Below are positions 17,748-38,276 of a stretch of DNA of 64,000 nt, piece after piece (position 1 is the stretch's first letter; each line of letters starts with the position of its first letter). The DNA is from an uncultured delta proteobacterium (GTDB taxonomy: Bacteria > Desulfobacterota > Binatia > UBA9968). The DNA is taken from positions 416,001 through 480,000 of the forward strand of contig CAVSHR010000002.1 of assembly GCA_963727625.1 (NCBI GenBank). The letters run 5' to 3'. Below the pieces are notes generated by a model. It ran no database searches. It was given only the letters and a program-made list of their open reading frames with translations, and had not been told where the DNA came from. The translations under genes were made by a program, and so were the position numbers.

Positions 17748-17837
17748 TAGCAAAGGGTCCTTCTGTACACGAGGCATCATCTACCGCGCTTTCCGACCAC
17801 CGTGCCCAAGTGACCAAGACATGCTAGACTCCTGCCT

Positions 17838-18137
17838 GTGGCGTACCGCGTTCAGTTCGCGAGTTCTGTAGAGGAACAGTTCGCTGGGCTCTCTGCTCGT
17901 GAACAAGCGATCGTGCTCAGCGCTGTAAAGGTTCAGTTACGACACGAGCCGACAAGGGAGACGCGAAACAGAAAACTGTTGCGTCCTAACCCATTAGCGC
18001 CTTGGGAATTACAAATCGGTTCTCTGCGGATTTTCTATGAGGTGGATGCATTGGAATCTGATTTGGTAAACATTCTCGCCATTGGGGTTAAGAAAAGGAA
18101 TCGGCTTCTGGTTGCAGGCAAGGAGATTCGGATATGA
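17838..18137 (+). CDS. Type II TA toxin, RelE/ParE family
   Basis: 99 aa; WELQIGSLRIFYEV..VNILAIG. Confidence 0.85.
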   Translation: MAYRVQFASSVEEQFAGLSAREQAIVLSAVKVQLRHEPTRETRNRKLLRPNPLAPWELQIGSLRIFYEVDALESDLVNILAIGVKKRNRLLVAGKEIRI

Positions 18138-18436
18138 AGGCAATAAAGCTACCCAAAGAGATTCAGTCATTTCTCGATGTTGCCGAGGCTGCAGAGGAAG
18201 AAACGCTCGTCTTCACGAAGAAGAAACGACCGGTCGCTGCTCTGGTCTCTCTCAGAAGGGTGGATCGAGAGTCAGTCGCGCTTAGCACGAACCCACAGTT
18301 TTTGAAGATTGTAGAAACTGCGAGAAGAGAAATTCGGGCAGGAAAAATAATTTCGCTGGAGACATTGGAGAAAAAATATCGCGTAAAAACGCCTAGCAAA
18401 AGAATGGAGCGAACGCGAAAAACACGTCGCCAGTGA
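18134..18436 (+). CDS. Type II antitoxin (Phd/YefM-like)
   Basis: ATGA overlap with the toxin; LVFTKKKRPVAALV. Confidence 0.75.
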   Translation: MKAIKLPKEIQSFLDVAEAAEEETLVFTKKKRPVAALVSLRRVDRESVALSTNPQFLKIVETARREIRAGKIISLETLEKKYRVKTPSKRMERTRKTRRQ

Positions 18437-18437
18437 G

Positions 18438-18497
18438 GGCGATGCTGCTCCAACCGGCAGCGAAAAAATTCTGGCGCGCCCAGGGTATCTGAGTTAA
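18438..18497 (+). pseudogene. Displaced copy of the TAXI gene 3' end
   Basis: Reads AMLLQPAAKKFWRAQG versus gene end AIPLHPAAEKFWRGRG (17690-17747). Confidence 0.8.
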
Positions 18498-20934: not shown

Positions 20935-21168
20935 GTGATGTGTTTGGGACGGGTGGACGCTTTCCGACTAGTAACGTCCGTCGAAAAGTTTTTACCAGAG
21001 ACGTATCCAGCGACGGGACGAATACATCGACTGGCCCCCCGGACGCGCTTCGGACAAAAGCAAAGGGCAGGGCAAATCGCCGCTGTCGCGATTGTTCTCA
21101 CGGCGTAATATAATGGTCACCGTAACTAATGGTTAGACGCTCCGAGCAACTTCAGCTATACGTGGATA

Positions 21169-21505
21169 ATGGCCCGAGCGGACCCTTCCTGACGACGTCC
21201 TATCCTTCATTCGGGAGTGTGTTCGCGGGGGTCGGATCCTTTGGACTTACCACGTCAACATGCGACTTGGACAGAGATTCATCGCGCGGGACACTATTAT
21301 CCGAGCGATCGATACCTACGAAATTGTGGAGTCCTATCCGGAGGACAAGTACTTTCCGAGCTATTTGGTGCTGGGCCGAGAGGGCGCCGATGCGTTTCAC
21401 ATATTGTTCGGTGCCGACGTAGAGGGTCAGAACGTGAGGATCATCACGGCATATTTCCCGAGCCCCGACGAATGGGAAACCGACTTCAAAAGCCGAAGGA
21501 GCTGA
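21169..21505 (+). CDS. DUF4258-like toxin, with a +1 frameshift in CCC just after the ATG
   Basis: WTYHVNMRL, ESYPEDKYFPSYLV and IITAYFP motifs; removing one C at 21173-75 gives MAERTLPDD... Confidence 0.7.
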
Positions 21506-21507
21506 TT

Positions 21508-21729
21508 ATGAAGTGCACTGTCTGCGGCGGCCACATGCATGCCACCACCACCGACTTGCCATTTAAGATGGCGGAGGGGCGGATCGTAATTCTGAAGCAA
21601 CTGCCGGTTCTGCAATGTGAAGCGTGCCGCGAATATCTCATTGAAGATACCGTTATGGCACGGATCGATGAATTGCTGGCGAGACGTGACAGCACTGCCG
21701 AACTGGAAGTGATTCGTTATGCTGCTTAA
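21508..21729 (+). CDS. MqsA/YgiT-type zinc-finger antitoxin
   Basis: MKCTVCGG...LQCEACRE; directly follows the DUF4258-like gene. Confidence 0.85.
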   Translation: MKCTVCGGHMHATTTDLPFKMAEGRIVILKQLPVLQCEACREYLIEDTVMARIDELLARRDSTAELEVIRYAA

Positions 21730-21910
21730 AGACGATAGGAGACGAGTGGTGTGAGAGCGACGTAACACAAACAGACCTTATTCGAGGGTCAAGCGATTTA
21801 AGAATCACAGTTTACCGCCCGGCCTGTAATCCTTGAGGCCCCTATCATTGCGGAGCTTCTTCTAGGACAACCCAATCCTCATGTTGCATGGCGATGTGAA
21901 TCAATGTCGG

Positions 21911-21992
21911 CATCGGCTCCGACATCGCCGATCCGATCAGCGGCTCGCTGCCGCACCGGTCTTTTCTGTGCCGCGTCCGTCCGGCCCAATAG
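21911..21992 (+). pseudogene. Displaced 3' end of the molybdopterin oxidoreductase (copy 2)
   Basis: IGSDIADPISGSLPHRSFLCRVRPAQ* versus gene IGSDLADPISGSLPHRSFLCRVRPG*. Confidence 0.9.
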
Positions 21993-22117
21993 GGGCGAAG
22001 TTTTTTGTCCCATTTGCGGCTTGATTGCGTCGACGCTTTTAGCATAATACGCGCGATCGAACGAAACGCGTGACGCGTCACCAAACCAATTTACATCCGA
22101 ATAATCAGGAGGGAACG

Positions 22118-22795
22118 ATGAGACTTTGGCATTATCTTCTTGTGATAGGCGCGCTTTTGATCGTCGGCAGCGGCCAGTGGGAAAACATCGTGGGCGCCGC
22201 CAGTGCTCCGCCGCCCAGCATGGGCTTCTTCGTTACCAGCGCAAAGAGCAAGACCGGAAATCTCGGCGGTCTAGCCGGTGCGGACAAAACTTGCCAAACC
22301 TTGGCTACCGCTGTGGGTCAGGGAGACAAAACCTGGCGCGCTTACCTTAGCGCGGAGCGCGATCCCTCCAACAACAATAATCCCACCAACGCCCGCGACC
22401 GGATCGGCAACGGGCCCTGGTTCAATGCCAATGGCATCATGGTCGGCAATGATCTCGCCGACCTTCACGCGCGCAGGGGAAATCCGATCTTGTTGGTAGA
22501 CGAGCACGGCCAAATGATTCCCGGCAATTGGCCCAATTCACCGAAGCCTACCGAGCATGACATCCTCACAGGTTCCACGGCTGAAGGCACAGTCATCGCT
22601 GGCAAGACCTGCGACAGTTGGACGTCGGATTCTCCCGACCTGAAGGCGCAAATAGGCCATTTGGACGGCATTGGGCTTGGTGGCAATACGGCGGGACGGA
22701 CTGCGTCGTGGAACTCCGCACATGAGAGTCGAAGTTGCGCCGACACCGCGCCGGGCGGTGGGGCGGGAAGGTTTTATTGCTTCGCGGTGAAGTAG
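22118..22795 (+). CDS. Secreted lectin/endostatin-like fold protein
   Basis: GNLGGLAGADKTCQ, WRAYLS, HDILTGS and RFYCFA motifs; signal peptide. Confidence 0.75.
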   Translation: MRLWHYLLVIGALLIVGSGQWENIVGAASAPPPSMGFFVTSAKSKTGNLGGLAGADKTCQTLATAVGQGDKTWRAYLSAERDPSNNNNPTNARDRIGNGPWFNANGIMVGNDLADLHARRGNPILLVDEHGQMIPGNWPNSPKPTEHDILTGSTAEGTVIAGKTCDSWTSDSPDLKAQIGHLDGIGLGGNTAGRTASWNSAHESRSCADTAPGGGAGRFYCFAVK

Positions 22796-22895
22796 AAGGC
22801 GTTAGCACGATCCACGCGAGTTACAGTTGCTTTGAACGGTGAAATGGCCAACGATCAGCCAAATTGCCATCTCGGTTTTGTTGCGGCCTCAGGAC

Positions 22896-23059
22896 GTGGT
22901 GTGCTGCCAGTACGGCTGGTGACAGATGTGCAACGAACTGGAACTGCCCGGCTACGACGCCTACAACGAACAATCCGCCAACCCCAGTCTCCTCATCGCC
23001 TCGCCGATCCGATCAGCGGCCCTTTGCCGCACCGGTCGTTTCTCTGCCGCGTGCGGCCT
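22896..23059 (+). pseudogene. Displaced 3' end of the molybdopterin oxidoreductase (copy 3, decayed)
   Basis: VVCCQYGW*QMCNELELPGYDAYNEQSANPSLLI/LADPISGPLPHRSFLCRVRP; contains a stop and a 7-nt deletion. Confidence 0.9.
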
Positions 23060-24717: not shown

Positions 24718-26580
24718 CCTCAAATAAGCGCTGTGGACAGGAAAATTTGTTGAGGTGGATTTAAAAACGGGAAAAGCCCTCTGAAATGAGGTATACGAAG
24801 AGTTGCCACACAGCAACGTAACCCCAAAAAGCAGAGGGCTCCCAAGTGAAAATATCTATCGCATTTGGACGTGCAAGTCACGTCAATTCCGGTACGAGCA
24901 TCGATCCTGCCGAACTTCCGTGGCCCGAGACTCAAGGGCGGGTGATGCGCCATCCGCTGCTCCATCTTGAGAGCGATCCACGAGGTAACATTACGCATTA
25001 TGGAGGTTTGGTCTTGGCGCAGCAGTTTGTCCGGCGGTTTCGGGTTGCGCAGCGGTTGGACCAGGCCCTGGTGTTGTTTAGGCGTCATGCCCCCTACTTT
25101 GAGTCGGACCATGTGCTGGCGCTGATGTACACGCTTTATGCCGATGGGACATGTCTGGAGGACCAGGCGGTGCTGCAAGGGAGCGAGGCGATTCGAAGAC
25201 TGGTGGGAGCGTGTCGGATTCCGGACCCGACGACGGCGGGAGATTTTCTGCGTCGGTTTAAGAGCGCACAAGATTTGGAGCAGTTGAGTGGGGTGGGCGA
25301 CGAGGTGCAAGAGGCGGTGTGGTCGAAGTTGCCCGCCCCGGTACGTCGTCACAGGAAGAAGCACGAGATGGCGCTGGTGGATCTCGATGGTCACATCAAG
25401 CCCCTGTACGGGGTGCAGAAAGAGGGGGCGGATTTTAGCTACGACGGGCGTTGGTCGTATCAGCCGTTGGTGGTGACGCTGGGTGGCAGTGGGGAGTGCC
25501 TCAAGGTGGTCAATCAGCCAGGCAGCGGGCATGCTGCGGACGGCGCCGCCGAGGCTCTCAAGGAAGTTTTGCCACGGGTGAAGCGCCATTTCAAAAGCGC
25601 CATTGTGCGGGGCGATACCGACTTTGATCGGGCCGACGTGTACCAGGCGGTGATCGAGCAGGGGGCGTACTTTGCCATTGGGGCCAAGCTGCATCCCAAT
25701 CGCGCCGCGCTGGCCGAGGCGATTGCGGAGAAGCGTTGGCAGCGATTTTGTCCGCGCGCCGAGCGCAACAAGCCAGCCGGGTCTAGTCGTGAGGGGCGCA
25801 CCCCCAACTACCGCAAAACCAAAGCCCAACAGCGAGGGTACCGCACGTTGAGCACGCTTCAGCAGTGGATCAGCGAGATCGACTATCAGCCCGCCGGGGT
25901 GCCCTTTCCGTGTCGCCTGATCGTGCGGCGGATTTTGATTGAAGAGTGCGATGGTCAGGGAGTGCTCTTTCGCCATTTCCGCTACCGGTTGGTGCTGAGC
26001 GATCTGCCGCGTTCTTACACGGCTCAGCGGGTCGTCGATCTGACCTATCAGCGCTGCGACCAGGAAAACCTCATCGAGCAATTCGGTCACGGCATTGCGG
26101 GGTGGCGCATGCCGGTGGCGGAGTTTATGGGCAACTCGGCGTGGCTGGAAATAGCTCGGCTGGCGTGGAATCTGGGCAAGTGGATCGCCCAACTGGTCTT
26201 GCCCGAGGAGGTAGTGCGCTGGGAGTGGAAGCGCTTTCGCCGCCACTTTGTCTACATTGCGGCCAAGGTTCTCAAGCTCGGCAGAAGCTTGGTGGTGCGG
26301 CTGGCCGGATCGCATCGGTATTTGCCCGACATCCTCGCCGCTCATGCTCGATTGCAGACCTAACAGACGGTTGCGACGCGACCTCATCCGGCTGCTCCCG
26401 CGGGCCGACGCACGCCGCGCTGCGCTCAAAATCACTCTCGACCTCGGTTCATCGTCCAACAACATCCGACTGGCTCCGATTTGTGATATAAACGCATGCT
26501 CATGATGGGCTTACGAACCGTCAAGGATCTCCCTATGAACCGACCATGCATACTTTTAGACGCTTGGCGCTTATTTCAGG
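24718..26580 (+). mobile_element. IS1380-family element
   Basis: Inverted repeats CCTCAAATAAGCGC / GCGCTTATTTCAGG; flanked by ACTAGT on both sides. Confidence 0.88.
24846..26363 (+). CDS. IS1380-family DDE transposase
   Basis: THYGGL, PDPTTAGDFLRRF, DLDG, VRGDTDF and YQRCDQENLIEQ motifs. Confidence 0.9.
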   Translation: MKISIAFGRASHVNSGTSIDPAELPWPETQGRVMRHPLLHLESDPRGNITHYGGLVLAQQFVRRFRVAQRLDQALVLFRRHAPYFESDHVLALMYTLYADGTCLEDQAVLQGSEAIRRLVGACRIPDPTTAGDFLRRFKSAQDLEQLSGVGDEVQEAVWSKLPAPVRRHRKKHEMALVDLDGHIKPLYGVQKEGADFSYDGRWSYQPLVVTLGGSGECLKVVNQPGSGHAADGAAEALKEVLPRVKRHFKSAIVRGDTDFDRADVYQAVIEQGAYFAIGAKLHPNRAALAEAIAEKRWQRFCPRAERNKPAGSSREGRTPNYRKTKAQQRGYRTLSTLQQWISEIDYQPAGVPFPCRLIVRRILIEECDGQGVLFRHFRYRLVLSDLPRSYTAQRVVDLTYQRCDQENLIEQFGHGIAGWRMPVAEFMGNSAWLEIARLAWNLGKWIAQLVLPEEVVRWEWKRFRRHFVYIAAKVLKLGRSLVVRLAGSHRYLPDILAAHARLQT

Positions 26581-26680
26581 ACTAGTCAACTCCAGACTTG
26601 AACCTAATTATTCCCCCTAATTATTCCTAATTATTCTAATTATACAATTATTAATTCAATTCCTCCTGACCCCAATTCCC
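26581..26680. repeat. REP-like hairpin plus degenerate (CCTAATTATT)n array
   Basis: ACTAGTCAACTCCAGACTTGA is identical to 30711-30731; followed by nested short repeats. Confidence 0.8.
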
Positions 26681-26721
26681 CCTCCCCCCCAAAGATGCGA
26701 GCACTAATGCTCCCGCTTCAC

Positions 26722-27285
26722 CTACTTTCGGCCATACCGCTGTTGCTGGCGCTGTTCTGCTTTCCGAAGTCGTTCTTGGGTCGGCTTAACATCTACCGAA
26801 AAATGATATTTCCGCCAGGTGGTTTTCATTTGTATTACGTCATCATCATCAAGGTAAATAGTCTTGGAGGCCAGGCCTTGGGTAGGGGGAAAATCGTTGC
26901 GCGGGTCTCCTAAAAGAATTGCGAGCCCATTTTTCCGAACATGTGCCCCTCGATAAACTTCTCCGTGCGGCATAAGCTTATAAATTATCCAGATCAAGCC
27001 CTTAGAGACATGAGGATTAAAATAAATCGGCACATCCTTGCCTGATTTTCCGATATCAAGATAATAACTAGCATAACCCATCGCATAAATCTCGTCTTTC
27101 ACTGCCAAAATAACAGCTTGGACCTCGTGGTCAGTGACCTTCCGTTGTGGTGGAGCGTCAGGTTGTGCAAATACATAGGATGCCCCACTGGCCAATACTA
27201 ATAAATTTAATAGAAGGTGCGTTCCGTAGAATTTTCTACGGAAAAACCTGGATATAAACTGATGCACCTTTGGGTACATCTCCAC
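26722..27285 (-). CDS. Putative periplasmic immunity protein for orphan toxin 3
   Basis: Low GC, signal-peptide-like segment ending VFA-QPD; overlaps the toxin stop. Confidence 0.7.
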   Translation of the reverse strand: MEMYPKVHQFISRFFRRKFYGTHLLLNLLVLASGASYVFAQPDAPPQRKVTDHEVQAVILAVKDEIYAMGYASYYLDIGKSGKDVPIYFNPHVSKGLIWIIYKLMPHGEVYRGAHVRKNGLAILLGDPRNDFPPTQGLASKTIYLDDDDVIQMKTTWRKYHFSVDVKPTQERLRKAEQRQQQRYGRK

Positions 27286-28354
27286 CTCCAGCTACGTTTC
27301 TAAATGGTCCAAAGGTCAATCTCGGCGTTCCTTGGGCCCACCGCGGTATGGGTTGGTTGACGCCTGGAGCATACTGGAAGAAATGTTGTGCCCCACCTGT
27401 CGGATCACCCTTAGGATTACTCAACACATGCTGAGCTGCCGTACTTGATTCGTTGTAAGCTTGCACAGCCGAAGGAACTCCATTTTGAATCGCCGTCGCT
27501 TCATTAACTGTTAAGGTTGTCGACGCTGTTCCTCTACCGAGGGGAACTCCCGTGGCCTCTCGGTTCATACCAACATAACCGATTGCGACCCGCGCGTCGA
27601 ACAAGGGCCCGCGCAGTCCAGCAGTTTCGTTATAGATGACATTTGTCAACCGATTGAGTTGATCTGCTACTTGCGCGGCTTTTAGCCCAAGATATATGGC
27701 CGGGCTGGAGAGGGACGAAAAATCTGAGCCCGGCAGGTCGACTGCGAAACCCAGACCGCCTCCAATCGAGCCTCCGTTTCCCACTCCACCAAACTCTGTC
27801 AACTCTCCCGCGAATCCAAGTATAGCGCTGCCGATTTGACAGCCCGTGTTTTTGCAAAAACCCAATCCACCCGAGGCGGCAAAGAGGAGTCCCGCTGGAT
27901 TTCCGCTGAGCGCCATCCCGATGCCGCCGATGATCTCCAGCACACCCAAAGCCGTTCTAAATTCGGGAACATGGTCCGCGACCGCGCCGAGACCTCCTCC
28001 TATGACAGCTCCTAAAGGCCCGCCGATGAAAAATCCAAAAATCGAGCCGAAGATGTTACCAAAGAACCCGCCCTTTTTCTTATGCCGATGGAAATACCCA
28101 TCGGGGTCGATGTAGTTCTGCGGGTTGTTAACGACGTAGCTGTAGCGGTTGAGATTCTGAGGGTCTAACGGCGTCTGGACGAAGGGATCGGCCGAGACAA
28201 ATCGCCCAGTCTCGGCGTCGTAGTATCTGCCGCCGTAGTAATAGAGCCCCGTCTCGGGGTCGAGCTTCTGACCGGTGAACCTCTGGGTTGGGTCGATCGT
28301 GCCCTCGGATCGGGAAGCAGTGCCCCAGGGATCGTACTCGTTGAGCTGGACTCG
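27236..28354 (-). CDS. Orphan Rhs cassette 3: core tip plus SleB/Hydrolase_2-like cell-wall hydrolase C-terminus
   Basis: Open frame with no start from RVQLNEYDPWG; YVVNNPQNYIDPDG; C-terminus with VIYNETAG..NR..DPTGGAQHF..PRWA. Confidence 0.8.
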   Translation of the reverse strand, partial: RVQLNEYDPWGTASRSEGTIDPTQRFTGQKLDPETGLYYYGGRYYDAETGRFVSADPFVQTPLDPQNLNRYSYVVNNPQNYIDPDGYFHRHKKKGGFFGNIFGSIFGFFIGGPLGAVIGGGLGAVADHVPEFRTALGVLEIIGGIGMALSGNPAGLLFAASGGLGFCKNTGCQIGSAILGFAGELTEFGGVGNGGSIGGGLGFAVDLPGSDFSSLSSPAIYLGLKAAQVADQLNRLTNVIYNETAGLRGPLFDARVAIGYVGMNREATGVPLGRGTASTTLTVNEATAIQNGVPSAVQAYNESSTAAQHVLSNPKGDPTGGAQHFFQYAPGVNQPIPRWAQGTPRLTFGPFRNVAGGGDVPKGASVYIQVFP

Positions 28355-28609
28355 GGTGGCTTTGAGAACTCAGAAAAGAGTCGCATCCCTTTTTCTCCCG
28401 CGAAATGTCAGGGAAGCCGTGATCAGCCGGTTGGAATCGTCGTGCTGGAACGTCTGGCTGTAGGTGAATTGACTGTCGCTGGCGGAGGCAGATTTGATGT
28501 CCCAGGCGGGAATGGATGAGGTCTATGCCAGGGCGAATGCCTGGAATCTGCGCGGTCGCCCTGCGAGAATAGCAATAAGGAGTTACGCAATTTAGGCAAG
28601 TCAGGCACC
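28355..28609. repeat. ~255-bp leader upstream of orphan cassette 3
   Basis: Near-identical to 30075-30329; ends in GTCAGGCACC. Confidence 0.9.
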
Positions 28610-28652
28610 GGTGAGCCACTAAACGCTAAACAGGAAGCTCAACAGCTAAAAA

Positions 28653-28919
28653 TTAATTTGGACAAGAGTGAATTAATATTAAAGTTGTCACGCCAATCGC
28701 AAATAAGGCTCCGCACATCCAAGAGATATTACGCCAAAAAATCCCTTCTGGAGTCAGATACCGATGCCCCCCGAATTGGATGAAAAATGGGTTAAACAGT
28801 AGACGGGCCTGAAACATCGGTATGCCTGGTTTTCTTTTGGCAATTAATAGAAACTGGGATACCGCGCAAATCACCCATAGCAATAAAAGAATCAATAGCA
28901 CGGCTAATCGCAACAGCAT
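28653..28919 (-). CDS. Putative membrane immunity protein (2 TM) for orphan toxin 2
   Basis: 88 aa, low GC, two hydrophobic helices, downstream of the toxin C-terminus. Confidence 0.7.
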   Translation of the reverse strand: MLLRLAVLLILLLLWVICAVSQFLLIAKRKPGIPMFQARLLFNPFFIQFGGHRYLTPEGIFWRNISWMCGALFAIGVTTLILIHSCPN

Positions 28920-29000
28920 GAGTACGATTTCTCCATTAAGGGAACGTTGTCAATATGACCTATTGACCTATTGCTATCGTCAGTCATCTATCCATTACTT

Positions 29001-30074
29001 TCACTTTCCACCACAAAACAACAAACAGGTCGCTATCGTTCTGTCACGCGTAATTGCGACACCTAGGCCAGGACCGGCAATGCCGGCTGTTGGAGATAGG
29101 ATGTTGATGTTGTCGTCATAACTGTATCCCAAACCAATACCCAGTTGTGCTTGGAAATTATTTACCACTCCACCTGGATCAGCGCCAGAATAACCCGACA
29201 CAGTGAGCCCAAGGCCTCCCATCCAGCCTTCACCGCTAGTGGCATAGGAATAATAAATGCCCCAACCGTCGTTTCCTATGTAAATTCCAACACCACCCTG
29301 ATATGCACGACTTAAGAGTCCTTTTGCAATAATTTGTCCCTGTACGCCAAACTGTATGCCACCTTTAGCTCCTCTTTTTGGAGTATCGCGTTGCTGGGAG
29401 GTCTTTGCCTTTGCTTTATTTCCTGCGGCCACTTGTGTGGAGGTACTCCTCACGAGCCCGAGCAAGGTCCGCAGCAGTTCCCAGTTCGTATCCGTGCAGA
29501 CATCGCATCCGGTTTCCATCGCAAGGCGCAAAGCTGGGCTGAAGAACCCCCCTCCCCCTGCATTGCTTAATCCGGGAATCTGTGGTCCGCCGGCATCCGC
29601 AACAAATCCTCCCTGGTTTGCTCCACTAACCGGTCCAGCGCTCTCGGCTACTATTCGACCTAAATCAGCGAGAGCCCATGCTGTACTAGCAAATCCGACG
29701 AGGTCCGCACCTGGCGGGGCACCCATCGATAGCAAGACAATGTCAAAGATAATACTAAAGATCTTTCCGAAGATACTATTAAAGAACCCGCCCTTTTTCT
29801 TGTGCCGATGGAAATACCCGTCGGGGTCGATGTAGTTCTGCGGGTTGTTGACGACGTAGCTGTAGCGGTTGAGATTCTGTGGATCTAACGGCGTCTGGAC
29901 AAAAGGATCGGCGGAAACAAATCTGCCGCTCTCGGCGTCGTAGTATCTTCCCCCGTAATAGTAAAGCCCGGTCTCCGGGTCGCGCTTCTGGCCGGTAAAC
30001 CGCTGGTCGGGATCGATCGATCCCTCGGTTCGGGAAACCGTGCCCCAAGGATCGTATTCGTCGAGCTGGACACG
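29001..30074 (-). CDS. Orphan Rhs cassette 2: core tip plus Gly-rich C-terminal toxin domain
   Basis: Open frame with no start from RVQLDEYDPWG through DPDG to stop at 29001. Confidence 0.8.
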   Translation of the reverse strand, partial: RVQLDEYDPWGTVSRTEGSIDPDQRFTGQKRDPETGLYYYGGRYYDAESGRFVSADPFVQTPLDPQNLNRYSYVVNNPQNYIDPDGYFHRHKKKGGFFNSIFGKIFSIIFDIVLLSMGAPPGADLVGFASTAWALADLGRIVAESAGPVSGANQGGFVADAGGPQIPGLSNAGGGGFFSPALRLAMETGCDVCTDTNWELLRTLLGLVRSTSTQVAAGNKAKAKTSQQRDTPKRGAKGGIQFGVQGQIIAKGLLSRAYQGGVGIYIGNDGWGIYYSYATSGEGWMGGLGLTVSGYSGADPGGVVNNFQAQLGIGLGYSYDDNINILSPTAGIAGPGLGVAITRDRTIATCLLFCGGK

Positions 30075-30329
30075 GGTGGCTTTGAGAACTCAGAAAAAAG
30101 TCGCTTCCCTTTTTCTCCGCCGAAATGTCAGGGAAGCCGTGTGATCAGCCGGTTGGGATCGTTGTGCTGACACGTCTGGCTGCAAGTGAATTGACTGTCG
30201 CTGGCGGAGGCAGATTTGATGTCCCAGGCGGGGATGGATGAGGTCTATGCCAGGGCGAATGCCTGGAATCTGCGCGGTCGCCTGCGAGCCAGCAATAAGG
30301 AGTTACGCAATTTAGGCAAGTCAGGCACC
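30075..30329. repeat. ~255-bp leader upstream of orphan cassette 2
   Basis: Near-identical to 28355-28609. Confidence 0.9.
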
Positions 30330-30357
30330 AGTCACTGGGCAGGCACCAGTCACTGGG
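30322..30357. repeat. 18-bp perfect tandem duplication
   Basis: CAGGCACCAGTCACTGGG twice, at the point where the transposase is truncated. Confidence 0.9.
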
Positions 30358-30683
30358 CCTCGATGAGGATCGCCTTGTATCGGCCGCGGAACAGCGTCCC
30401 GTCGCGCCGGTGGCGCCGGTTGAATCGCTGGGTATAGATACCGTCCACGTGGCGCATGACTCGGGATAGATTCCCTCTCGGTGTTTTCACACAGAGGTGA
30501 TAATGATTGCCCATCAGGGCATAGGCAAAGACTTCGATGTCCCACAGCCGATGGGCTTCGGCCACGGTATCGAGAAAGGCTTGATCGTCCGCCTCGTCGA
30601 CAAACGTCGGCTGTCTTGTCCGACCCCGGTTCATGACGTGATACACCGCTTTGGGGATATTGTATTCTTAGCGGACGCGACAT
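30350..30683 (-). pseudogene. Y1/HUH (IS200-like, RAYT-like) transposase, 3'-truncated and frameshifted
   Basis: MSRPLRIQYP/AVYHVMNRG, YALMGNHYHL (HUH) and FNRRHRRDGTLFRGRYKAIL motifs. Confidence 0.88.
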
Positions 30684-30710
30684 GGATATGAACTATCAAG
30701 GAAGGAGGGA

Positions 30711-30795
30711 ACTAGTCAACTCCAGACTTGACCCCAATTCTGCACCCAATTCTGCACCCCAATTCTGCAATTCTGCTGGACCCCAATTCTGCTCT
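30711..30795. repeat. REP-like hairpin plus (CCCCAATTCTGCA)n array
   Basis: GTCAA-N8-TTGAC stem 27 bp upstream of the transposase ATG, then about 5 nested copies of CAATTCTG. Confidence 0.85.
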
Positions 30796-30827
30796 TCTCC
30801 CCCATTTATCTCACCTATACCGGGTTC

Positions 30828-31187
30828 TTACTCGAGGTCATTGTCTCGGATGGAAGACACATAGACATTAGGCTTAAGCTGAATCATCAAATCGCGCAAC
30901 CCCGCTCCCTCTTTGAATAACAAATGCAGAACCTCCTTTACCGTGGTGATCTCGACCTTTATGCTGTCTATTTCTTCCAAGCATAGATTAATTAAGTCGA
31001 TTTGATTTCGAGACCATCGAAGCTGCGCGCTACCGTATCCTGGCTGGATTTCGAATTCTACGTGGTCGGTATCACGTACGGTAACAAAGGTAAGGTGGTT
31101 ATAACACCAAGGCACACCAGCATCTTTGAGTAAGGGTTCCGATTCAAAGAACTGAATCAATTCGTAGTCCTTAGGAAAATTTTCCAT
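30828..31187 (-). CDS. Putative cytoplasmic immunity protein for the main Rhs toxin
   Basis: Low GC, acidic, no signal peptide; immediately downstream of the toxin tip. Confidence 0.75.
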   Translation of the reverse strand: MENFPKDYELIQFFESEPLLKDAGVPWCYNHLTFVTVRDTDHVEFEIQPGYGSAQLRWSRNQIDLINLCLEEIDSIKVEITTVKEVLHLLFKEGAGLRDLMIQLKPNVYVSSIRDNDLE

Positions 31188-31237
31188 TTCTAATGCTTTT
31201 AATACTAACCGACAACTGATGTATTCTCAACCCATTT

Positions 31238-34200
31238 CTATTTGGTTATGCGCGTGAATAGGAAGTGGACAATTTGTTGCTTGCTAGGGTCCACAACTAA
31301 TTGGTACGTACCAACCCGTCCCGCGAATGTACCAATAACATCCCACCGAAGTCCGCCGGGAATTCCTCCCGGATCCGGTATGGGTGGTCGTGCGGCCATA
31401 ATTTCACGCACAAGTAATGACGAGCTAATATAAGGCCTCTTTAGTGCTTGACTCGCGACCGTCCCTGACAGGGTAAGTCGCCCCACGTTTTATTATAAGG
31501 CTCTCAACAACGCGGTTTACTAGTCCGTCATCATCAGCGGCAATATGCCGTATGTTCCTACTGAGCGCCGTAGGCGAACAATCGATGCATGTATCTCCGG
31601 TCTGTTGTGAGCGTGAATAGATTCCAAGATTGGCGGTTGTGTCGCTAGTAAAACCACCCGCCGCATTGTTAGCTTGCGCGACCTGTATGGCTGGTGAGAA
31701 ACTGCTTGCGAAGACCCCTGCGTGACTCGCAAGTACCGCCTGTGTGAGAAATCCAAAATCCAGCCCTGGCGGAGCCAACCCTGCAAATAGGCCTCCGGTA
31801 AATCCCCCAATAACCCCGCCGAGAAACGGGTTTCCGCCATTGAGCGCAGCGTTCACCGTACCACCGACAAACCCTCCTACGGCAGCAGCAACCTGTATGG
31901 GAGCCCCCGCTCCACCAGTGACTATTGTGACAATCGCCCCGATGAAAAACCCGAAGAAACTCTTGAAAAACCCGCCCTTCTTTTTCTTATGCCGATGGAA
32001 ATACCCGTCGGGGTCGATGTAGTTCTGCGGGTTGTTGACGACGTAGCTGTAGCGGTTGAGATTCTGAGGGTCTAACGGCGTCTGGACGAACGGATCGGCC
32101 GAGACAAATCTCCCGGTCTCGGCGTCGTAGTATCTGCCGCCGTAGTAATAGAGCCCCGTCTCGGGGTCGAGCTTCTGACCGGTGAACCTCTGGGTTGGGT
32201 CGATCGTGCCCTCGGATCGGGAAGCAGTGCCCCAAGGATCGTACTCGTTGAGCTGAACCCGGGTGCCAGCGATATCGGTGATGGCGTTGACGCTGCCCAG
32301 ATGATCGTTGTGGTAGAAGTATTTGTTTGTTCCCTTCTTGGAAGCGAAGTTTTCGATCCCGATCCGGATAAACTTCGTGATCACTCCGTTGGGATCGATC
32401 TCATAGCCCGCAAACGGATAAAGCGTGATGCCAGCGGGGGCGTTCTTTTTTACCCGAGTGCCGGCATAGTCGTATTCCATCGAGGTGCTGCCGCCGCCGG
32501 CGATGGCAATGCTGCTCACCCGGTTGTCGATATCCCAGGTAAGCGTCTGATTGCCCCGGCTGAGCATGTTGCCGTTGGCGTCGTAGGTATAGCTCTTGCT
32601 GAGACCCGCGTGGTTGGTGACCGCCGACGGATGCATCGAGTCGGCGTAGCTGAGAACCGCGCCGCACTTGTCGGTGAGATTGCCGATAGCGTTGTAGGCA
32701 TACGTGCAATTTGCTTGAGACAGGTTTCCCCCGAAGGTTCCGGAAGCGATTTGCAACCGATTCAGATCGTCGTAGGTGAACGTGCGGCTTGCCGTAAACA
32801 AGCTGTCCGTAATCGAAGTGACGTTGCCGTTGTTGTCGTAGCCGTAGGCAAGGTTCTGCTGATTGTTGGAAGTGGTCCGGTTGGTAACTCTGAAGTTGGC
32901 GGCGTTGTACGTCCAGGTGGTGGTGAGATTGTTGGCATAGGTCAGCGCGGTCTTTTGCCCTCTGGCGTTGTACGTGATGGCGTTGATGTAACCGGGCGCG
33001 CTGTTCAACCAGCCCGCTTCGTTGTAGGCGTACGTAACCGTCTCATTGTCGGGGAATGTCTCGCTGGTGATACGGCCGAGCGCGTCATAGCTCTGCGCCA
33101 TCGTCTGCCACACGCCCAAGAAGCTGGCGCTGGGTCTGGGTGGTTCGTCCCAGCTGATCGTACGCAAACTTTGTCGTGGTCGCCTGATCGACGATTTGAG
33201 TCACCCGTCCTTTTGAATAGGGCACCGTGGGATCGTCGTACGTCCAGGTGACCAGCGATACCGTCCCCTGCTTTTTGGTGAGCGGACGGCCGACGGAATC
33301 ATAGGTAAACGTCAGTGTCTGGTTTTTGGCGTCTTTCTGGGTCAGAAGGTCGCCGGCTAGATTGTACGTGTACACCCAGGCGCCAGGCGTGCTGGTGGAA
33401 CATGTGGTCAGACTGGATGCCGTGCCCATGTTGGGGTCGCACATGGCGATCTTGCGGCCCAGATAGTCATACGCGTTCAGGGTGTTGTGGCCGGCGTTAT
33501 TGGTCACTTTGATCAAAGAATCTGCCGCGTCGTACTGGTAGGTCGTAAAATAAGAGGCGCCGCCGTTGACCTCTTCGACCTGGATCACCCGGTGGTGCGA
33601 GTCGGTATAGGTGCGTTTGACCTTACCCCGCGGATCCGTCGCTATGAATTCGTGATGGTCGTAGGCGGTCTGCGCATTGGTGCCGTCGGGAAAATTCACC
33701 CGCGTCTGGCGTCCGAGGACGTCGTACAAAAATTCCGTCCAGACGGCTGTTTCAGTCGTAAAACGCGGCGCCGATGTTTTCCACTGAAGCCCCCGGCCAT
33801 CGAATTGAGTTTCCGAGACGATAGCCTGGCCGCCGGGTCCTTCCTGCGCAGATTGATAGTTCCGGCCCAGGCCGTCGAAGTACGCCTCGCTCCAGATGTA
33901 ATTCGCTGTGCCGTGCTGCTCGGTCCGATAGGTCGTCACCCGCTGCAAACTGGGGTTACCCCAGTTGAGATAGAACGTGCTCACCGTCCCATAGGTCGAG
34001 CTGCCGTCCAGCGGGCCGGTGACTTTGGTTACCCGGCCAAACACGTCGTAAGTCGATGTCATCGTCTGATTGTTGGCATCGGTCTGGCTCGTCATGACGC
34101 CGAAGCGCTCGTCATACGCCATCGTGCTCTGATGATTGAGGCAGTTGGTAACTGTGGAGGGAAATGTTTGGCTGGATTCAAAGACAGTGGAAGTCGTGCA

Positions 34201-36534
34201 GCTCCGCGCATCGGTCACCGACGTGCGATTGCCGTACGCGTCGTAGCTGTACGTAACCGTCGGATTACCTGCGTTTCCGATATTGCCGGCTAGACGCGAT
34301 TCTTCTTTTGTGACCAGGCCCCGGGTGCCGAGTGCGCCGTAAGCGGCGTTGTCGTAGTAAATCCAGCGCTCGCGCACCGTCGCCCCGGTGTTATCGAGGA
34401 GCGCCGTTCGCTTGGGCCGGTGAATCCAGTTGGCACTGTCAACGATCCATTCGGTGACTTCGGTTCTTTCATCGCCCGTGGTGGCCACGTCGCCCAGATC
34501 ATTTTTCTGGGTCGGGTTGCCGTTAGTGTCGTAGGTGAACGTCTCGGCATTTTGGTGGCAGGTGGCCTGGCCTTCGCACTCGAAATAGTCCGTCCGCGTC
34601 AGCGCCACGAAGGTTACGCCGGTGTAAGGATTCGACGTGGTAAAAGTGTTGACGACTTTGTTGTAGAGGGCGCCGGCGGCGCTGCGCGTTTCGATCTGGT
34701 AGGGGCGGCCCTTCTTGATGTCGTCTTGGTAAAACCAGGTATCGGTGTAGTTGCCGATGGGATCGATGGCGCGGACTTTGGCGTGGCCGCGAAATTCTTT
34801 GCGATCGGCGTTAACCGCAGGGTTATAGTAGGTGAAGTTTGTGGTCGAGCTCCAGCCGAGCCCATCGCTCATCGTGCGGCTAATAACCCGGTGTCGCGTG
34901 CGGTCTACTTCTCCCGGGCGGACATAACCATGCAAACTCCCGCCACAGTTTCCTGGACCGCTGGTGGAAAATCCGACGAAGTCACAGTTGCTGTTAAAAT
35001 CCTCGTCCCAAACGTCATAGAGCGCTACCGCATCGAGCACGTTTGAAGTATACGGGTAGCCATGCAGACTCCCGCCACAGTTTCCCGGACCGCTGCTCGA
35101 CAGTCCGGCGAAGATGCAGTTGCTATTAAAATCCTCGTTCCAAACGTCATAGAGCGGAAGTGTGCCGGCTGCGCTTGACGTCAGCACAACGCCGTGCGAA
35201 GTCCACTGACACTCAGTGTCGGTACGAGTGTCGGTCAAGCCGCTGAAAACACAGTTGCTGTTAAAGTCTTCGTACCACACGGAATAAAGCGACTTGATCT
35301 CCTCGTAGGCGAAACTCACCGATCCGCCGATGCCGTTGGTGGCGCTGGCTAGCACCGTGCCGACATAAGTAAAGGACCGGGGCGGTAAGGCGGAGGTTCC
35401 GTCACTGCCGATCGGCGTGACGCTTGTCAGCGTGAGATCGCCGGCGGCGCCGCCACCCCACGTATGATTGGGGTCGCGATCGATCGAGTAGTCGTAACCA
35501 AAGTTGTACTTGCGCACCAGGCTCGTACCGATCCGCACCTCAACGGCATCGAGACGGTAGAGCTCGTGATAGGAGGTGTGCTGACTACCGCTCACATCGG
35601 TCCAATCGGTTCGATTGCCCCGGATAAACGTCACCGTGCGGCTGTTGCCGACGAGCGAGCCCGCGTAGTAGGCATAAGTGATGGTATCGGGGTAGACCGC
35701 CTGATCGTAGGCCTTGTTGTTATAACTTGAGCTTTGCTTGAAGTAGCTATATCGGACGGAAACGCCGCTGGTTGTCGAAACCTCATCGATGAAGTAGCGA
35801 AAAGTGACGGGCACTTCTTTGTTAAGTGCGAAGGTAAGCCCCGTGGCGCGGCTGTTGGAAGTATAGCCGAAGCGGTGCGTGGTTCCATCCTTGGTCCTTA
35901 ACGTCCAGTAATCGCCGCTTGAAAAGTAGGTGATCTGCCAAAACGTTTCATCCTTGGTCCGGTAGCTTCCGCTACCGATAGAAACCAAATCATAGGTATG
36001 ACCGCCGAAGACGAGCTTGAAGCTGTCGTCCGACGTGCCGGTGGTTCCCTTGGTGTCGCGAACAATAAAGCCTCCACTGTCGAGCGACCACCCCAGGCCC
36101 ACCCAATCGGCCTGATCGCGCTCGCTGTTGTTGCCCATGTCATCAACAACGCCGCTGTTGTAATTGAGCAAGATCTTCGGCGCGATGCCGGCCGCTCCTG
36201 GCGGAACCAATATTGGAATCTCGGCGCCGGCTGAGCCGGTGAAAAGATCGGCCTGGAAGGACTGAATATTAAAACCAACGACTGAGGCGTCGAGACCCGC
36301 CGTTGCTGCGCTAGTCGTAACGGTTGCACCTGGCTTGGTCGGTTTCTTGGTTGTTTGAGTCGCAGCACTCGACGCGGCTGATGTTGTTTGAGTTGAACTT
36401 GCGCTGATATGCGACGCCTCTGAAGAAGATTGATCAACAATTGCTATCAGGAATATTAGGGCCGCCACTTGAAATAGATGGGAGAGCATAGGTTGTTGCG
36501 AGATTGAAAAAGTTCCAAGCCTGTGAGTGATCAT
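31238..36534 (-). CDS. Large SpvB/TcB-like plus YD-repeat Rhs toxin, split by two 1-nt frameshifts (~33116, ~31490)
   Basis: Signal peptide; SpvB-like DLFTGSA..IPILVPPG..GLGWSL; EFRGH; YD repeats; Rhs core DPDG; C-terminus PDPGGIPGGLRWDV..HFLF. Confidence 0.85.
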
Positions 36535-36997
36535 CTCCTCGCCTCCGCTTTCAAATTTACGTAAGACCGATTTCTGTTCCGGGAAAATCGTAAGGAGGCT
36601 TTTACAGGGTGGGGTGAGTCTTGTCCAATGCTATTTTTGCATAGACCTATGCACCTTTTGCATGAATCGATTCCGGCCCGTTGCCTTTGGCGGGGGAATT
36701 AGGCGGAGAGAAGCGGACGAAATAATGAGGCTTGCAGCAAGAAATTTAAATTGTTGCCCAATCGAAATAACGCAACCTTGGTTGCATCTCGTGTCAACCA
36801 GGATTGCGGATATGTAAACCAGAGTTGCTCCAGTTTATCTGCCTTCATTTTGCAACTTTCGAAACTTTCACGACTCGGGAGTCGGTTCCTCTCTATTTAC
36901 GGGTTGGTATGACATTTGCGTTTTTGTGCGGGCAAAGTCCGAGGTTGTTCAAATAACTTGCAGAAATATTCATAGTCATCGTGAAGGAAATTGTGGC

Positions 36998-37480
36998 ATG
37001 ACTCTCGATAGAATTCGATTATTCATTTGTGTCGCTAAGAATCGGAGCATTAGCCAGGCGGCACGCGAGCTTGGCATTAGCCAATGCGCGGCCTCCCGTA
37101 AACTGCAACAGCTTGAAGTCAAGGTTTCCTCCAAGCTGTTCGAGAGAAAAGGAGGCGGCATGGAACTGACCGCTTCGGGTCGGACGTTTCGGCATGAAGT
37201 CTCGTCGCTCTGGTCACAGTTTGAAGAGTTGGAGAAAAGATATACTCCGAGCCGAGATTCTCTCACCATCGCGGCCAGTCATCGTCCCTCGAAATACCTA
37301 CTGCCGAGGCTAATGATAGAGTTTAGTAAAATGCGTCCTTCGGCGAAATTGACTTTACTCACCCGGAGCAGCGTGGAAATTGAGAAACTGCTGTTGGAGT
37401 CCAGAGTTGATCTCGCGATCACCAACAATGTTAATATGTCAGGTACGGTGTCGGACCACGGGGTCGAGCCTGAGTTTTGA
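36998..37480 (+). pseudogene. LysR-family regulator, truncated at 37447
   Basis: HTH SISQAARELGISQCAASRKLQQLE; substrate-binding domain cut after VDLAI. Confidence 0.85.
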
Positions 37481-38276
37481 CTTATTGAAGCAGAAAAGGA
37501 TATCAGAACCTTTTTTGAGCCGGCTGTTGAGACATAATCCTGCTCCGTGCAATTCAGAATATCTCCTTAAATTCTTTCGCCTGCGGCACCCGCAGCTTAT
37601 CGGCAAGACGTTCGGCGGCCATATGAAAAAGCGATCACTCGTTGTTCCAACGATATTTCTTCAGGCAGTCACTGTGCTCATAGGCATTGGCGCTCTTGCT
37701 CTCATGCTTTGGGAACCTCACCTCGAAGGCAGAAACGCGCACGCCACGCCCTTTGAAATCTATTTCAAAGACCCATTTTTGTCGTATGCGTATTTAGCGT
37801 CCATTCCATTTTTCGTGGCGCTCCATCAGGCATTCAACGCGTTGGGATACATCCGAGAGAAGGTGTCGGACCACGGGGTCGAGCCTGAGTTTTGACTTAT
37901 TGAAGCAGAAAAGGATATCAGAACCTTTTTTGAGCCGGCTGTTGAGACATAATCCTGCTCCGTGCAATTCAGAATATCTCCTTAAATTCTTTCGCCTGCG
38001 GCACCCGCAGCTTATCGGCAAGACGTTCGGCGGCCATATGAAAAAGCGATCACTCGTTGTTCCAACGATATTTCTTCAGGCAGTCACTGTGCTCATAGGC
38101 ATTGGCGCTCTTGCTCTCATGCTTTGGGAACCTCACCTCGAAGGCAGAAACGCGCACGCCACGCCCTTTGAAATCTATTTCAAAGACCCATTTTTGTCGT
38201 ATGCGTATTTAGCGTCCATTCCATTTTTCGTGGCGCTCCATCAGGCATTCAACGCGTTGGGATACATCCGAGAGAA
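37447..38276. repeat. 415-bp tandem duplication
   Basis: 37447-37861 matches 37862-38276; each copy starts GGTGTCGGACCACGGGGTCGAGCCTGAGTTTTGAC. Confidence 0.95.
37623..37895 (+). pseudogene. Truncated copy of the DUF2975-like gene
   Basis: Same 5' half as the gene at 38038, cut by the repeat junction. Confidence 0.85.

Follow-up and report, generated by a model that had tools for sequence, protein, structure and literature searches.

The repeated motifs in the Rhs toxin-immunity array of the window (the whole stretch of 64,000 nucleotides analysed here) are terminal inverted repeats (TIRs) of TIRtrons, elements that encode a Y1/HUH enzyme with a DnaA-type helix-turn-helix (HTH) tail (TIRYT; TnpA-REP subclass 2.1 or RAYT group 1), and are left in the array as solo or truncated ends of several TIRtron families. 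The enrichment of such ends and enzymes behind Rhs immunity genes in the sampled bacteria suggests an enzyme for the non-matching joints in arrays of this kind. In our preferred reading, to which we give somewhat better than even credence, generic TIRtrons that were recruited many times land behind immunity genes and make the non-homologous joints of cassettes, and homologous recombination multiplies the modules.

The locus combines the features of Rhs polymorphic toxin arrays: TIGR01643, three TIGR03696 cores, variable tails, small downstream ORFs and orphan modules. Judged from sequence, the tails and downstream ORFs are putative toxins and immunity genes; none of the three Rhs tails and three putative immunity ORFs matched a Pfam or NCBIfam family above the cut-off. 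The features are as follows (window coordinates).

24718..26580, plus strand: IS1380-family element with a DDE_Tnp_1_4 ORF at 24846-26363 (Pfam) and a terminal inverted repeat; copies on C4, C6 and C14 have CTAG flanks
26581..26605, minus strand: outer 25 nt of an A-family TIRtron left end, tip 26605; 2 mismatches to the end at 30735
26606..26677, no strand: nested tandem duplication (stutter) outside the 26605 tip, with a 12-nt exact repeat of period 13; takes in an older partial tip
26722..27279, minus strand: putative immunity gene 3, 185 aa, from its position after C-terminal domain 3
27236..28358, minus strand: orphan Rhs module 3, core 28097-28336 (TIGR03696) and variable C-terminal domain; homology to other cores stops at 28358
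28353..28390, minus strand: H-family-like TIR, tip 28390, inner side at the Rhs core; aligned by eye to three H-type ends of the genome, no stutter
28580..28609, minus strand: P-family TIR at the head of orphan leader 3; the same TIR family forms an inverted pair around an intact TIRYT in G007:C182
28653..28919, minus strand: putative immunity gene 2, 88 aa, from its position
29001..30078, minus strand: orphan Rhs module 2, core 29817-30056 (TIGR03696) and variable C-terminal domain
30079..30110, minus strand: second copy of the H-family-like TIR, tip 30110, from sequence comparison
30300..30329, minus strand: P-family TIR at the head of orphan leader 2; identity with the 28609 copy begins exactly at the tip (0 to +39, offset 1720)
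30322..30358, no strand: 18-nt tandem duplication in the sequence, about -11 to +7 of the P tip
30353..30683, minus strand: TIRYT pseudogene, approximately 90% DNA identity to intact C5 copies
30711..30735, minus strand: A-family TIRtron left end in the sequence, tip 30735, upstream of the TIRYT start codon
30736..30793, no strand: nested tandem stutter between the 30735 tip and immunity gene 1; 15-nt exact repeat, period 12
30828..31187, minus strand: putative immunity gene 1, 119 aa; Atlas feature score of 0.95 to hypothetical small-protein clusters
31425..36534, minus strand: main Rhs/YD-repeat gene, core 32004-32243, with SpvB- and TcdB-midN-like N-terminal matches
36998..37448, plus strand: LysR gene, cut short at the junction; the C5 paralogue has it intact
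37447..37490, plus strand: 13-nt outer flank and B-family-like TIR, tip 37460, resembling the solo end C5:696097 and B-family ends
37447..38276, plus strand: exact 415-bp tandem duplication, -13 to +402 of the 37460 tip, extending into a DUF2975 gene

As originally predicted, a 21-mer lies after immunity genes 3 and 1, at 26581 and 30711; the 6.62-Mb genome contains no other exact copy, and two that differ at one position are found at the left ends of elements in the paralogous Rhs locus on contig C5. The copy at 26581 starts there because the IS1380 element, which is not a part of the TIRtron, inserted in its CTAG within the TIRtron left end; the remainder of that TIRtron is lost. The 10-mer reported for both orphan leaders was found at 28600-28609 and 30320-30329 and has 7 exact copies genome-wide, and a 35-mer occurs in the genome only at 37447 and 37862; the motifs are members of different TIR families. 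Four of the five motif sites in the original prediction do adjoin duplications: nested repeats cover 26606-26677 and 30736-30793, an 18-mer is duplicated at 30322-30358, and the two exact copies of the 415-mer fill 37447-37861 and 37862-38276. The exception is 28609, which lies 44 nt past the stop codon of putative immunity gene 2. Two more TIR-like ends, with tips at 28390 and 30110 and both free of duplications, had been overlooked.

The TIRYT copy in the window has a frameshift near its start and, at the outer flank of a P tip, breaks off after approximately codon 110, short of the catalytic Tyr; the HUH motif is kept, and the C-terminal Bac_DnaA_C/HTH part is missing. The main Rhs gene is in two frames, split near 33,100-33,170. 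The sequence at 37447..37490 is the boundary of the Rhs island, and the proposed truncation of LysR by the motif at 37447 is confirmed by the C5 paralogue, which matches to 37448 and then runs on as a 325-aa LysR. The 13 nt at 37447 look like N-family ends and are taken here as outer flank.

The assignment of the motifs to the ends of a Y1/HUH element is upheld by the identity of the TIRtron/TIRYT family, and the intact Y1 copy for which a search had been suggested exists as a relative in the paralogous Rhs locus of the same genome, on contig C5 (L022). This protein contains the HUH motif NHYH, of the pattern NH[VYF]H, and a catalytic Y119 and matches both Y1_Tnp and Bac_DnaA_C above the cut-off (38.5 bits against a cut-off of 31.5 for the latter); the alignment profile matches DnaA chains and the TnpA-REP 4er8, and the HUH motif and the Tyr are invariant across 11 aligned proteins. 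The intact copy is flanked by a TIR pair with 7 of the 8 positions of the GGGGWSAS consensus, and TIR pairs also surround other copies as well as 51 of the 87 full-length Y1 matches in other genomes, with a P-family pair in G007. Compared with the class-2 Y motif Y---NP and the W[EQ]/FQ motif, the A-family enzyme carries YIHLNA and FR; several other families in the genome carry YIHLNP or YVHLNP with FQ. In the phylogenetic tree, the A-family enzyme nests among subclass-type proteins.

Several other classes of elements were considered and rejected. The ends had been described as REP-like hairpins, a description that fails: they fold into no stable hairpin (mean z of -0.06 over 100 tips; -1.5 to +1.2 for the window ends) and belong to the described TIRtron/TIRYT class. 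Membership in the REPtrons is rejected on account of the lack of stable GTAG-footed hairpins and of the low copy number, with only 77 ends of all families in 6.6 Mb; the NCBIfam REP_Tyr_transpos model scores 72 bits, under its cut-off of 80. Elements of the IS200/IS605 group encode a TnpA of approximately 150 aa with a Y---Q motif and have subterminal hairpins and no TIRs; the enzyme described here is 315 aa long, comes with TIRs and scores 17 bits with the NCBIfam IS200 model, against a cut-off of 55. A DDE-type IS or MITE is rejected for want of a target-site duplication, the best flanking repeats of 49 paired elements being comparable to those of mismatched-pair controls, with a small excess of 5-nt flanking repeats (9 against 2.5).

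The principal trace of activity is a duplication footprint at the TIR tips. Exact tandem duplications of at least 10 nt that touch the tip are present at 20 of the 77 TIR tips in this genome (counted after removal of matches with more than one mismatch to the noisy 18-nt N-family seed), compared with a mean of 0.13 in 30 flank shuffles; thus, in the comparison with shuffled controls that the original prediction proposed, they are strongly enriched. Exact duplications occur at 0.33% of 3000 random positions, and the footprint is seen at 24 of 100 tips of other genomes. The duplications, including the 415-mer, begin no more than 13 nt outside the tip and extend inward, none of the 32 clean tandem duplications begins beyond -13, and the long ones have a common start region (-13 to +402 and -12 to +892); the bound of -4 on the outer range is set by the metric used. 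Both TIRs of the element show the footprint. The outer boundary has no clear dinucleotide preference beyond G-richness, and a tandem duplication does not tell which strand is nicked.

It appears very improbable that these duplications arose with no catalysis, through polymerase slippage at a G-run or at a protein roadblock on the TIR, or through assembly error. The tips are G-rich, microhomology of 2-3 nt accompanies 13 of the 32 duplications, and the copies of the 415-mer, known from the assembly alone, are 100% identical, all as such an origin would have it; however, microhomology is limited to 0-1 nt in the other 19 and is zero in 8 unambiguous cases, 5 of which end at the same base, +7, positions shifted by 60-200 nt from the tips yield 0-1 cases of 75-77, and the footprint recurs in many independent assemblies, including those of the cultured isolates behind L097 and L129. 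Furthermore, slippage leaves unexplained why translocation breakpoints share these offsets.

Several non-homologous Rhs and LysR breakpoints sit 6-13 nt outside a tip: at -13 for the C5 orphan, which shares 99.5% identity with the resident gene over 1024 bp, at -6, -9 and -11 on C8, at -10 for a toxin-immunity segment common to C5 and C8, and at -13/-11 for LysR. Locus L156 has four TIRs that share one 24-nt head, each of them located behind a putative immunity ORF, and the mutual identity of the copies begins at or beside the tip; on C4, an Rhs core fragment adjoins a TIRtron in a housekeeping region. Four junctions in the window depart from this outer-flank rule: both H-like ends adjoin the Rhs core at a point approximately 32 nt inward of the tip, stutter is absent at 28609, and IS1380 bounds the end at 26581. 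Of the REP-guided HUH nuclease that had been proposed as the source of non-homologous junctions, the nuclease gains support from these breakpoints, the enriched duplications and the recurrent Rhs link, and the REP guidance falls away.

Of the 80 Rhs loci, 24 have a TIR or a class-2 Y1 gene no more than 2.5 kb downstream of the Rhs core, and neither is found near the core in the other 56, many of which are at contig ends. When equal 3-kb intervals are compared, 16 of 60 Rhs loci are positive against 2 of 45 ParE/HsdS controls (49 loci less four overlapping HsdS loci; p=0.003); this comparison replaces a value of 16/37 from a genome subset, which is inflated because the genomes were chosen partly for being positive. 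TIR tips number 21 in 257 kb near cores versus 1 in 996 kb farther off, a zone that includes housekeeping genes and the body of the Rhs gene, where fewer insertions are tolerated. The association, which the original prediction had suggested seeking in related genomes, recurs in three genome samples, with the proviso that the genomes are related rather than independent and that repeated TIRs of one array may be copies of one event. With a broader motif set, 10 near and 27 far matches were obtained, little over the near-zone share of 20%, and it is therefore the matrix-defined TIR type and the Y1 profile that carry the signal.

A rather unlikely alternative is that TIRYT makes the stutter and the junctions merely as insertions or adjacent deletions in damage-tolerant DNA behind immunity genes, the cassettes being gained by homology-facilitated illegitimate recombination and RecA while the TIRs hitchhike. 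Against this scenario, other variable loci of the same genomes are struck far less often (the 2 of 45 above), nine queries with other mobile elements, a set of low power, gave 1 near and 2 far matches, and TIRYT is co-oriented with the upstream ORF in 17 of 18 cases near cores, above the 70% baseline (p=0.016); moreover, the recent C5 copy of 1024 bp begins in the flank of a tip, and therefore DNA was gained at that joint. What the alternative accounts for well is that TIRtrons adjoin genes of all kinds (in a neighbour scan of 70 of 130 candidate ORFs, called simply as the longest ORFs) and that low-GC DNA is generally rich in tips (6 of 39 stretches under 50% GC), that many arrays have no TIRs, that several junctions are destructive (the truncated LysR, the truncated TIRYT and a truncated gene on C4), and that co-orientation is common anyway (43 of 61 sampled TIRYT loci); also, the published model, in the passages that set it out, requires no enzyme (PMC5361080).

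The opposite possibility, that a domesticated line of TIRYTs specialises in Rhs arrays and uses TIRs as programmed sites for cassettes, much as integrons use attC, is quite improbable. The regular direct-oriented TIR-cassette repeats in L156, L163 and L032, the orientation bias and the presence of a class-2 Y1 gene within about 4 kb at all 5 Rhs loci of this genome would fit it, but an Rhs core is absent near 77 of the 80 sampled TIRYT loci and present at 3 (within fetched DNA of up to 10 kb on each side), several TIR families occur within one array, and the array copies are often truncated. Nor do the Rhs-linked TIRYTs cluster in the tree, where 15 label changes are found versus 17.5 in shuffles, at least 9 of them forced by well-supported branches (L159_7880, L099 and L031 being labelled Rhs-linked though outside the 2.5-kb downstream zone). 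The dedicated diversification system of the original prediction is accordingly not supported.

Returning to the preferred reading, we infer, from the footprint only, that TIRYT cleaves DNA at the TIR and transfers the strand. The enzyme, provided in trans by intact copies, would bind the TIR and nick some 4-13 nt outside the tip, staying linked through its Tyr to the strand that runs into the element. Extension of the freed 3'-OH and its rejoining, in many cases preceded by a second cut immediately after the first 7 bases of the TIR, would yield a short or long tandem duplication, and joining of the Tyr-linked end to another 3'-OH would create a non-homologous junction. Joins behind an Rhs immunity gene would delimit orphan core-toxin-immunity modules and, in this case, also the boundary of a whole second Rhs locus; an existing TIR-leader-core unit would allow modules to be multiplied and swapped by ordinary homologous recombination. 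If confirmed, this scheme would identify a catalyst that makes the junctions of toxin cassettes, and an HUH activity that joins DNA in a polar manner and needs no hairpin. The locus joins two questions, that of the non-homologous joints of arrays and that of the function of subclass 2.1, and supplies an intact enzyme, cognate ends and cut positions predicted from natural products (outer -13 to -4, inner +7). As a bolder and tentative extension, which we think possible rather than probable, TIRYTs could catalyse the formation of the non-homologous end during C-terminal displacement in a considerable fraction of Rhs arrays across phyla. The tips would then serve as polar, rolling-circle-like sites of capture and copying, at which core-toxin-immunity cassettes are inserted, duplicated and circularised, and hosts would keep TIRs behind immunity genes because toxin turnover is sped up. 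If this were true, the largest class of TnpA-REP-like HUH enzymes would, together with the prochlorosin link discussed below, gain a general role in diversifying competition gene arrays.

The element class itself is known: the TIRtrons and TIRYT (Di Nocera et al. 2013, PMC3733652) correspond to TnpA-Y1 subclass 2.1.2 (Quentin et al. 2018, PMC6006769) and RAYT group 1 (Bertels et al. 2017, PMC5581495), and subclass 2.1 is given as the largest class-2 group of Y1 enzymes, found in 14.9% of strains (PMC6006769). The elements described here share with TIRtrons a Y1/HUH enzyme of approximately 310 aa with a Bac_DnaA_C-like tail, TIRs that start with GGGGWSAS, the lack of REP hairpins and dispersed solo TIRs; they differ in the YIHLNA and FR of the A-family enzyme, where the subclass table lists Y[IV]HLNP and FQ (PMC6006769). 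The relevant passages of these three papers mention no tip-anchored duplications and no link to Rhs, the words 'tandem' and 'rhs' do not occur in the main text of Quentin et al. (PMC6006769) nor 'target site duplication' in that of Di Nocera et al. (PMC3733652), and our literature search found no earlier paper on a TIRtron-Rhs link and no biochemical or in vitro study of subclass 2.1.

The closest parallel is the subclass 2.1 TnpA-REP beside prochlorosin (procA) genes in picocyanobacteria, proposed to be a diversifying recombinase (Laurenceau et al., bioRxiv 10.1101/2020.03.09.984088). Both cases involve the same subclass, full-length and truncated copies scattered in a hypervariable array, a fixed orientation and no phylogenetic linkage; the Rhs case differs in its cargo of Rhs modules and in that TIR tips, cut-like offsets and controls are at hand. 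Because the TIRtron class is already described and a diversifying role has been proposed for its subclass at prochlorosin genes, the system cannot be called undescribed. From an integron-like dedicated system, the locus differs in its mixture of TIR families, rather than a single site family at all cassettes, and in an enzyme lineage that is not restricted to arrays.

One-ended rolling-circle transposition of IS91/ISCR elements creates a polar junction at one end, with no target duplication and with flanking DNA carried along; the IS91-family enzymes are of another HUH type and act on distinct ori and ter ends. The joints described here are similarly polar and carry flanking DNA, as with the C4 core fragment, whereas the enzyme is of the Y1 type and has two similar TIRs. 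The nick-prime-recleave chemistry that TIRYT may use would be the same as that proposed for REPtron/BIME amplification in E. coli, where the first cut primes host synthesis and a second cut, with attack on the Tyr-5'P intermediate, adds a tandem unit (Ton-Hoang et al. 2012, PMC3333891, Fig. 7B); the E. coli enzyme, however, recognises GTAG-footed hairpins and cuts at CT, whereas the TIRs are unstructured. Finally, the locus resembles the Rhs, CDI and T6SS orphan arrays, in which, according to the relevant passages (PMC3150448; PMC5361080), a main gene is followed by orphan core-toxin-immunity modules with a conserved core that were formed by C-terminal displacement, the far junction being ascribed to homology-facilitated illegitimate recombination. 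Junctions without homology are there usually attributed to rare illegitimate recombination with no enzyme known, and evidence for a facilitating integrase in the T6SS arrays is stated to be lacking (PMC5361080, same passages); in the arrays analysed here, by contrast, the far junctions fall at the ends of an HUH element.

The positions of the motifs and adjacent duplications in the original prediction were all confirmed by re-checking the sequence of the window, which maps to contig C2 of the host genome (6.62 Mb in 15 contigs). The ends of terminal inverted repeats (TIRs) in the window are:

26581 and 30711: the 21-mer (TIR family A)
28609 and 30329: the 10-mer (TIR family P)
37460: an end similar to the B-family ends on contigs C8 and C4
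28390 and 30110: further TIR-like ends (H-like)

The 21-mer occurs genome-wide in two exact copies and two more with one mismatch, on contig C5, where it forms the left terminus of a 1-kb element whose TIRs enclose a gene for a 315-aa protein with Y1_Tnp and Bac_DnaA_C domains, both over the cut-off. The HUH and Tyr residues are invariant across an 11-protein alignment, and many of the 35 Y1_Tnp matches in the genome are such TIR-flanked elements. Judging by sequence, the element is a TIRtron, with TIRYT as its enzyme, as described by Di Nocera et al. (PMC3733652); the same class is called subclass 2.1 by Quentin et al. (PMC6006769), and group 1 by Bertels et al. (PMC5581495). The 10-mer is the tip of a different TIR family, an inverted pair of which encloses an intact TIRYT in another genome (G007). 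The ends did not form stable hairpins on folding, so the hairpin reading of the motifs fails, and the paired elements showed no target duplication. The TIRYT gene in the window is frameshifted and cut off upstream of the catalytic Tyr, so that any activity must be supplied in trans; this copy and one on C8 are cut off by the outer flank of another TIR at codons ~110 and ~128.

The start position of the 26581 motif is explained by an IS1380 inserted in its CTAG. IS1380 right ends lie at CTAG within a left TIR at window 24718-26580 and C6:137843 (2 of the 4 right ends found), another IS, presumably IS1182-like, is inside a right TIR at C5:1071115, and a TIR tip lies at most 400 nt from 6 of the 34 copies of other mobile elements. 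By eye, the middle parts of the two orphan leaders (28391-28580 and 30111-30300) look like a degenerate piece of YD repeat from some other Rhs gene, with a different TIR family on either side. At C9:287700-287861, regularly spaced direct repeats, CRISPR-array-like, adjoin the right end of a TIRtron.

Tips (the outermost TIR bases) were catalogued with 31 seeds from element ends, the window's own included, at up to 3 mismatches, giving 77 tips; in the reversed genome, 2 mismatches or fewer yielded 0 matches and 3 mismatches yielded 9. Of the 77 tips, 20 are touched by an exact tandem repeat 10 nt or more in length, against 0.13 for shuffled flanks, 0.33% for random positions and 0-1 of 75-77 for positions shifted by 60-200 nt. 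In other genomes, where a TIR pair was detectable at 51 of 87 full-length Y1 matches (100 usable tips), the same footprint is found at 24 of the 100 tips (shuffles, 0.13; random, 0.47%), and the genomes that carry it include two cultured isolates. In both sets pooled, clean tandem duplications occur at 32 of 177 tips, none starting farther out than -13 (minus offsets lie outside the element; the metric demanded a start at -4 or beyond), with a microhomology of 0-1 nt in 19 and 2-3 nt in 13; five of the eight unambiguous duplications end after the seventh TIR base. Slippage or assembly error, the alternative on which these controls and microhomologies bear, is a very improbable source of the footprint. 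Relative to its tip at 37460, the 415-mer spans -13 to +402; at locus L114, a 902-nt repeat spans -12 to +892. Both starts match those of the short duplications, so that short and long duplications have one geometry. This geometry fits a model put forward for E. coli TnpA-REP (PMC3333891), in which a strand is nicked, extended, cut again and rejoined; the duplication does not reveal the nicked strand. At locus L091, both ends of one TIRtron have a 14-nt outer flank in common, in inverted form, as if tip and flank had been copied from one end to the other.

Several breakpoints in Rhs loci lie at similar positions. The break of LysR at 37447/8 is a true non-homologous junction, because the paralogue of window 31951-37448 on C5 (1078658-1084151, 93% identity overall) keeps both Rhs (1772 aa) and LysR intact. 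Between window 31900-37450 and the C5 locus, identity is mosaic (84-92% near the core, 99-100% at LysR and in other blocks), a pattern indicative of repeated conversion or of a recent composite origin; both main Rhs genes contain three 132-135-bp repeats coding a Cys-containing repeat (window 34925-35291). A class-2 Y1 gene lies ~4 kb or less from a core at all five Rhs loci of this genome, and four of the five have related Rhs DNA, yet the TIRtrons come from three different families. Distances outward from a tip are 13 nt for the start of a 1024-bp orphan segment on C5 (99.5% identical to the resident gene; right tip), 6, 9 and 11 nt for the ends of Rhs segments on C8 (right tips), and 10 nt for the end of a toxin-immunity segment common to both contigs (P tip). 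On C4 (222300-225000), a TIRtron in a housekeeping region has a 190-bp core fragment next to its left end. Copies of a housekeeping gene pair, 79% identical to each other, flank the element on its two sides, and the truncation of the second copy falls at the right tip. In the window, the identity of the two orphan leaders begins exactly at the P tip, and the DNA outside differs.

At locus L156, four direct-oriented TIRs with the same head each follow a putative immunity ORF by 17-52 nt, and two of them head a cassette that fuses a TIRtron start with core, tail and immunity gene. The fusion at L032:12013-13187 (Rhs-sense coordinates) joins the first 104 TIRYT codons in frame to Rhs core and tail (374-aa ORF), and the start signals of the element could drive expression of the orphan module. 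Some joints in the window are misfits: the two H-like ends join the core ~32 nt inward of their tips, and no tip duplication is present at 28609. A 170-bp segment, 98% identical between otherwise different Rhs loci (C8:236761-236930 and C5:957775-957944), carries several tip-like remnants directly after a putative immunity gene both times, with further partial copies at C8:234544 and C9:176410. Toxin-antitoxin-like pairs and a DUF1554 gene (window 17690-18486 and 20757-23058) are bracketed by partial duplicates (repeat families D4, D5 and D13) of the 3' ends of the genes before them, a displacement-type pattern; no TIR was found there.

The association with Rhs cores was examined in three samples. 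Thirteen relatives contributed 20 loci; a phylum draw contributed 40, taken from 40 of the 49 other core-bearing genomes; and a set of 18 genomes, built around the class of a gammaproteobacterial isolate, contributed 20. A TIR (matrix trained on TIRtron elements) or class-2 Y1 gene is present within 2.5 kb downstream of the core at 11/20, 9/40 and 4/20 loci, respectively, and is absent at 56 of the 80, many of which end at contig edges. Pooled, there are 21 tips in 257 kb near cores against 1 in 996 kb far from them, and 18 against 8 Y1 matches; 17 of the 18 near genes are on the Rhs strand (baseline 43/61). With windows equalised at 3 kb, the first 60 Rhs loci include 16 positives, compared with 2 of 45 ParE and HsdS loci, from genomes picked partly for carrying TIRtrons (p=0.003); p-values for the association overstate it, because the Y1 profile also picks up other class-2 enzymes, kin are non-independent and coding DNA makes up most of the far zone. 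The Rhs zones of this genome, 24 kb in all, hold 14 of the 77 tips (expected 0.28), and a tip is present in 8 of 13 Rhs-zone windows versus 6 of 39 windows below 50% GC, with fewer at higher GC. The feature is real: a known, unstudied element linked to Rhs cassette joints across lineages, with controls.

Given the observed element family, tip footprint, breakpoint offsets, enrichment and orientation, we lean towards a mechanism in which TIRYT would cut at the tip-flank offsets and link the tip-side end with foreign 3' termini, founding orphan modules that RecA would then multiply via repeated leader and core. That the enzyme leaves scars at the joints without contributing to cassette gain is possible but less likely. 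Evidence against a dedicated Rhs diversification system comes from the neighbourhoods of TIRYT, with a core in the fetched DNA at only 3 of 80 loci and, in a scan of 70 of the 130 candidate ORFs, many genes of ordinary metabolism and housekeeping, and from a 68-protein tree in which Rhs-linked enzymes need 15 label changes (17.5 in shuffles), a scatter implying that the association arose many times; with the 56 negative Rhs loci, these results make such a system improbable.

PMC5361080 attributes Rhs and T6SS arrays to displacement with homology-facilitated illegitimate recombination, no integrase being known to take part; PMC3150448 describes, at a CDI orphan junction, sequence resembling a transposable element, as well as orphans disrupted by IS; and a 2026 Stenotrophomonas Rhs preprint (10.64898/2026.07.13.738213) lacks the string 'transpos'. 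We found no literature on a TIRtron-Rhs array link or tip duplications, which subscription papers and supplements, largely outside the search, may record; the tip-duplication footprint is apparently unpublished so far. The nearest precedent is that of Laurenceau et al. (bioRxiv 10.1101/2020.03.09.984088), which reports subclass 2.1 genes clustered alongside those for prochlorosins and proposes them as diversifiers, although without inverted repeats and with doubt noted later.
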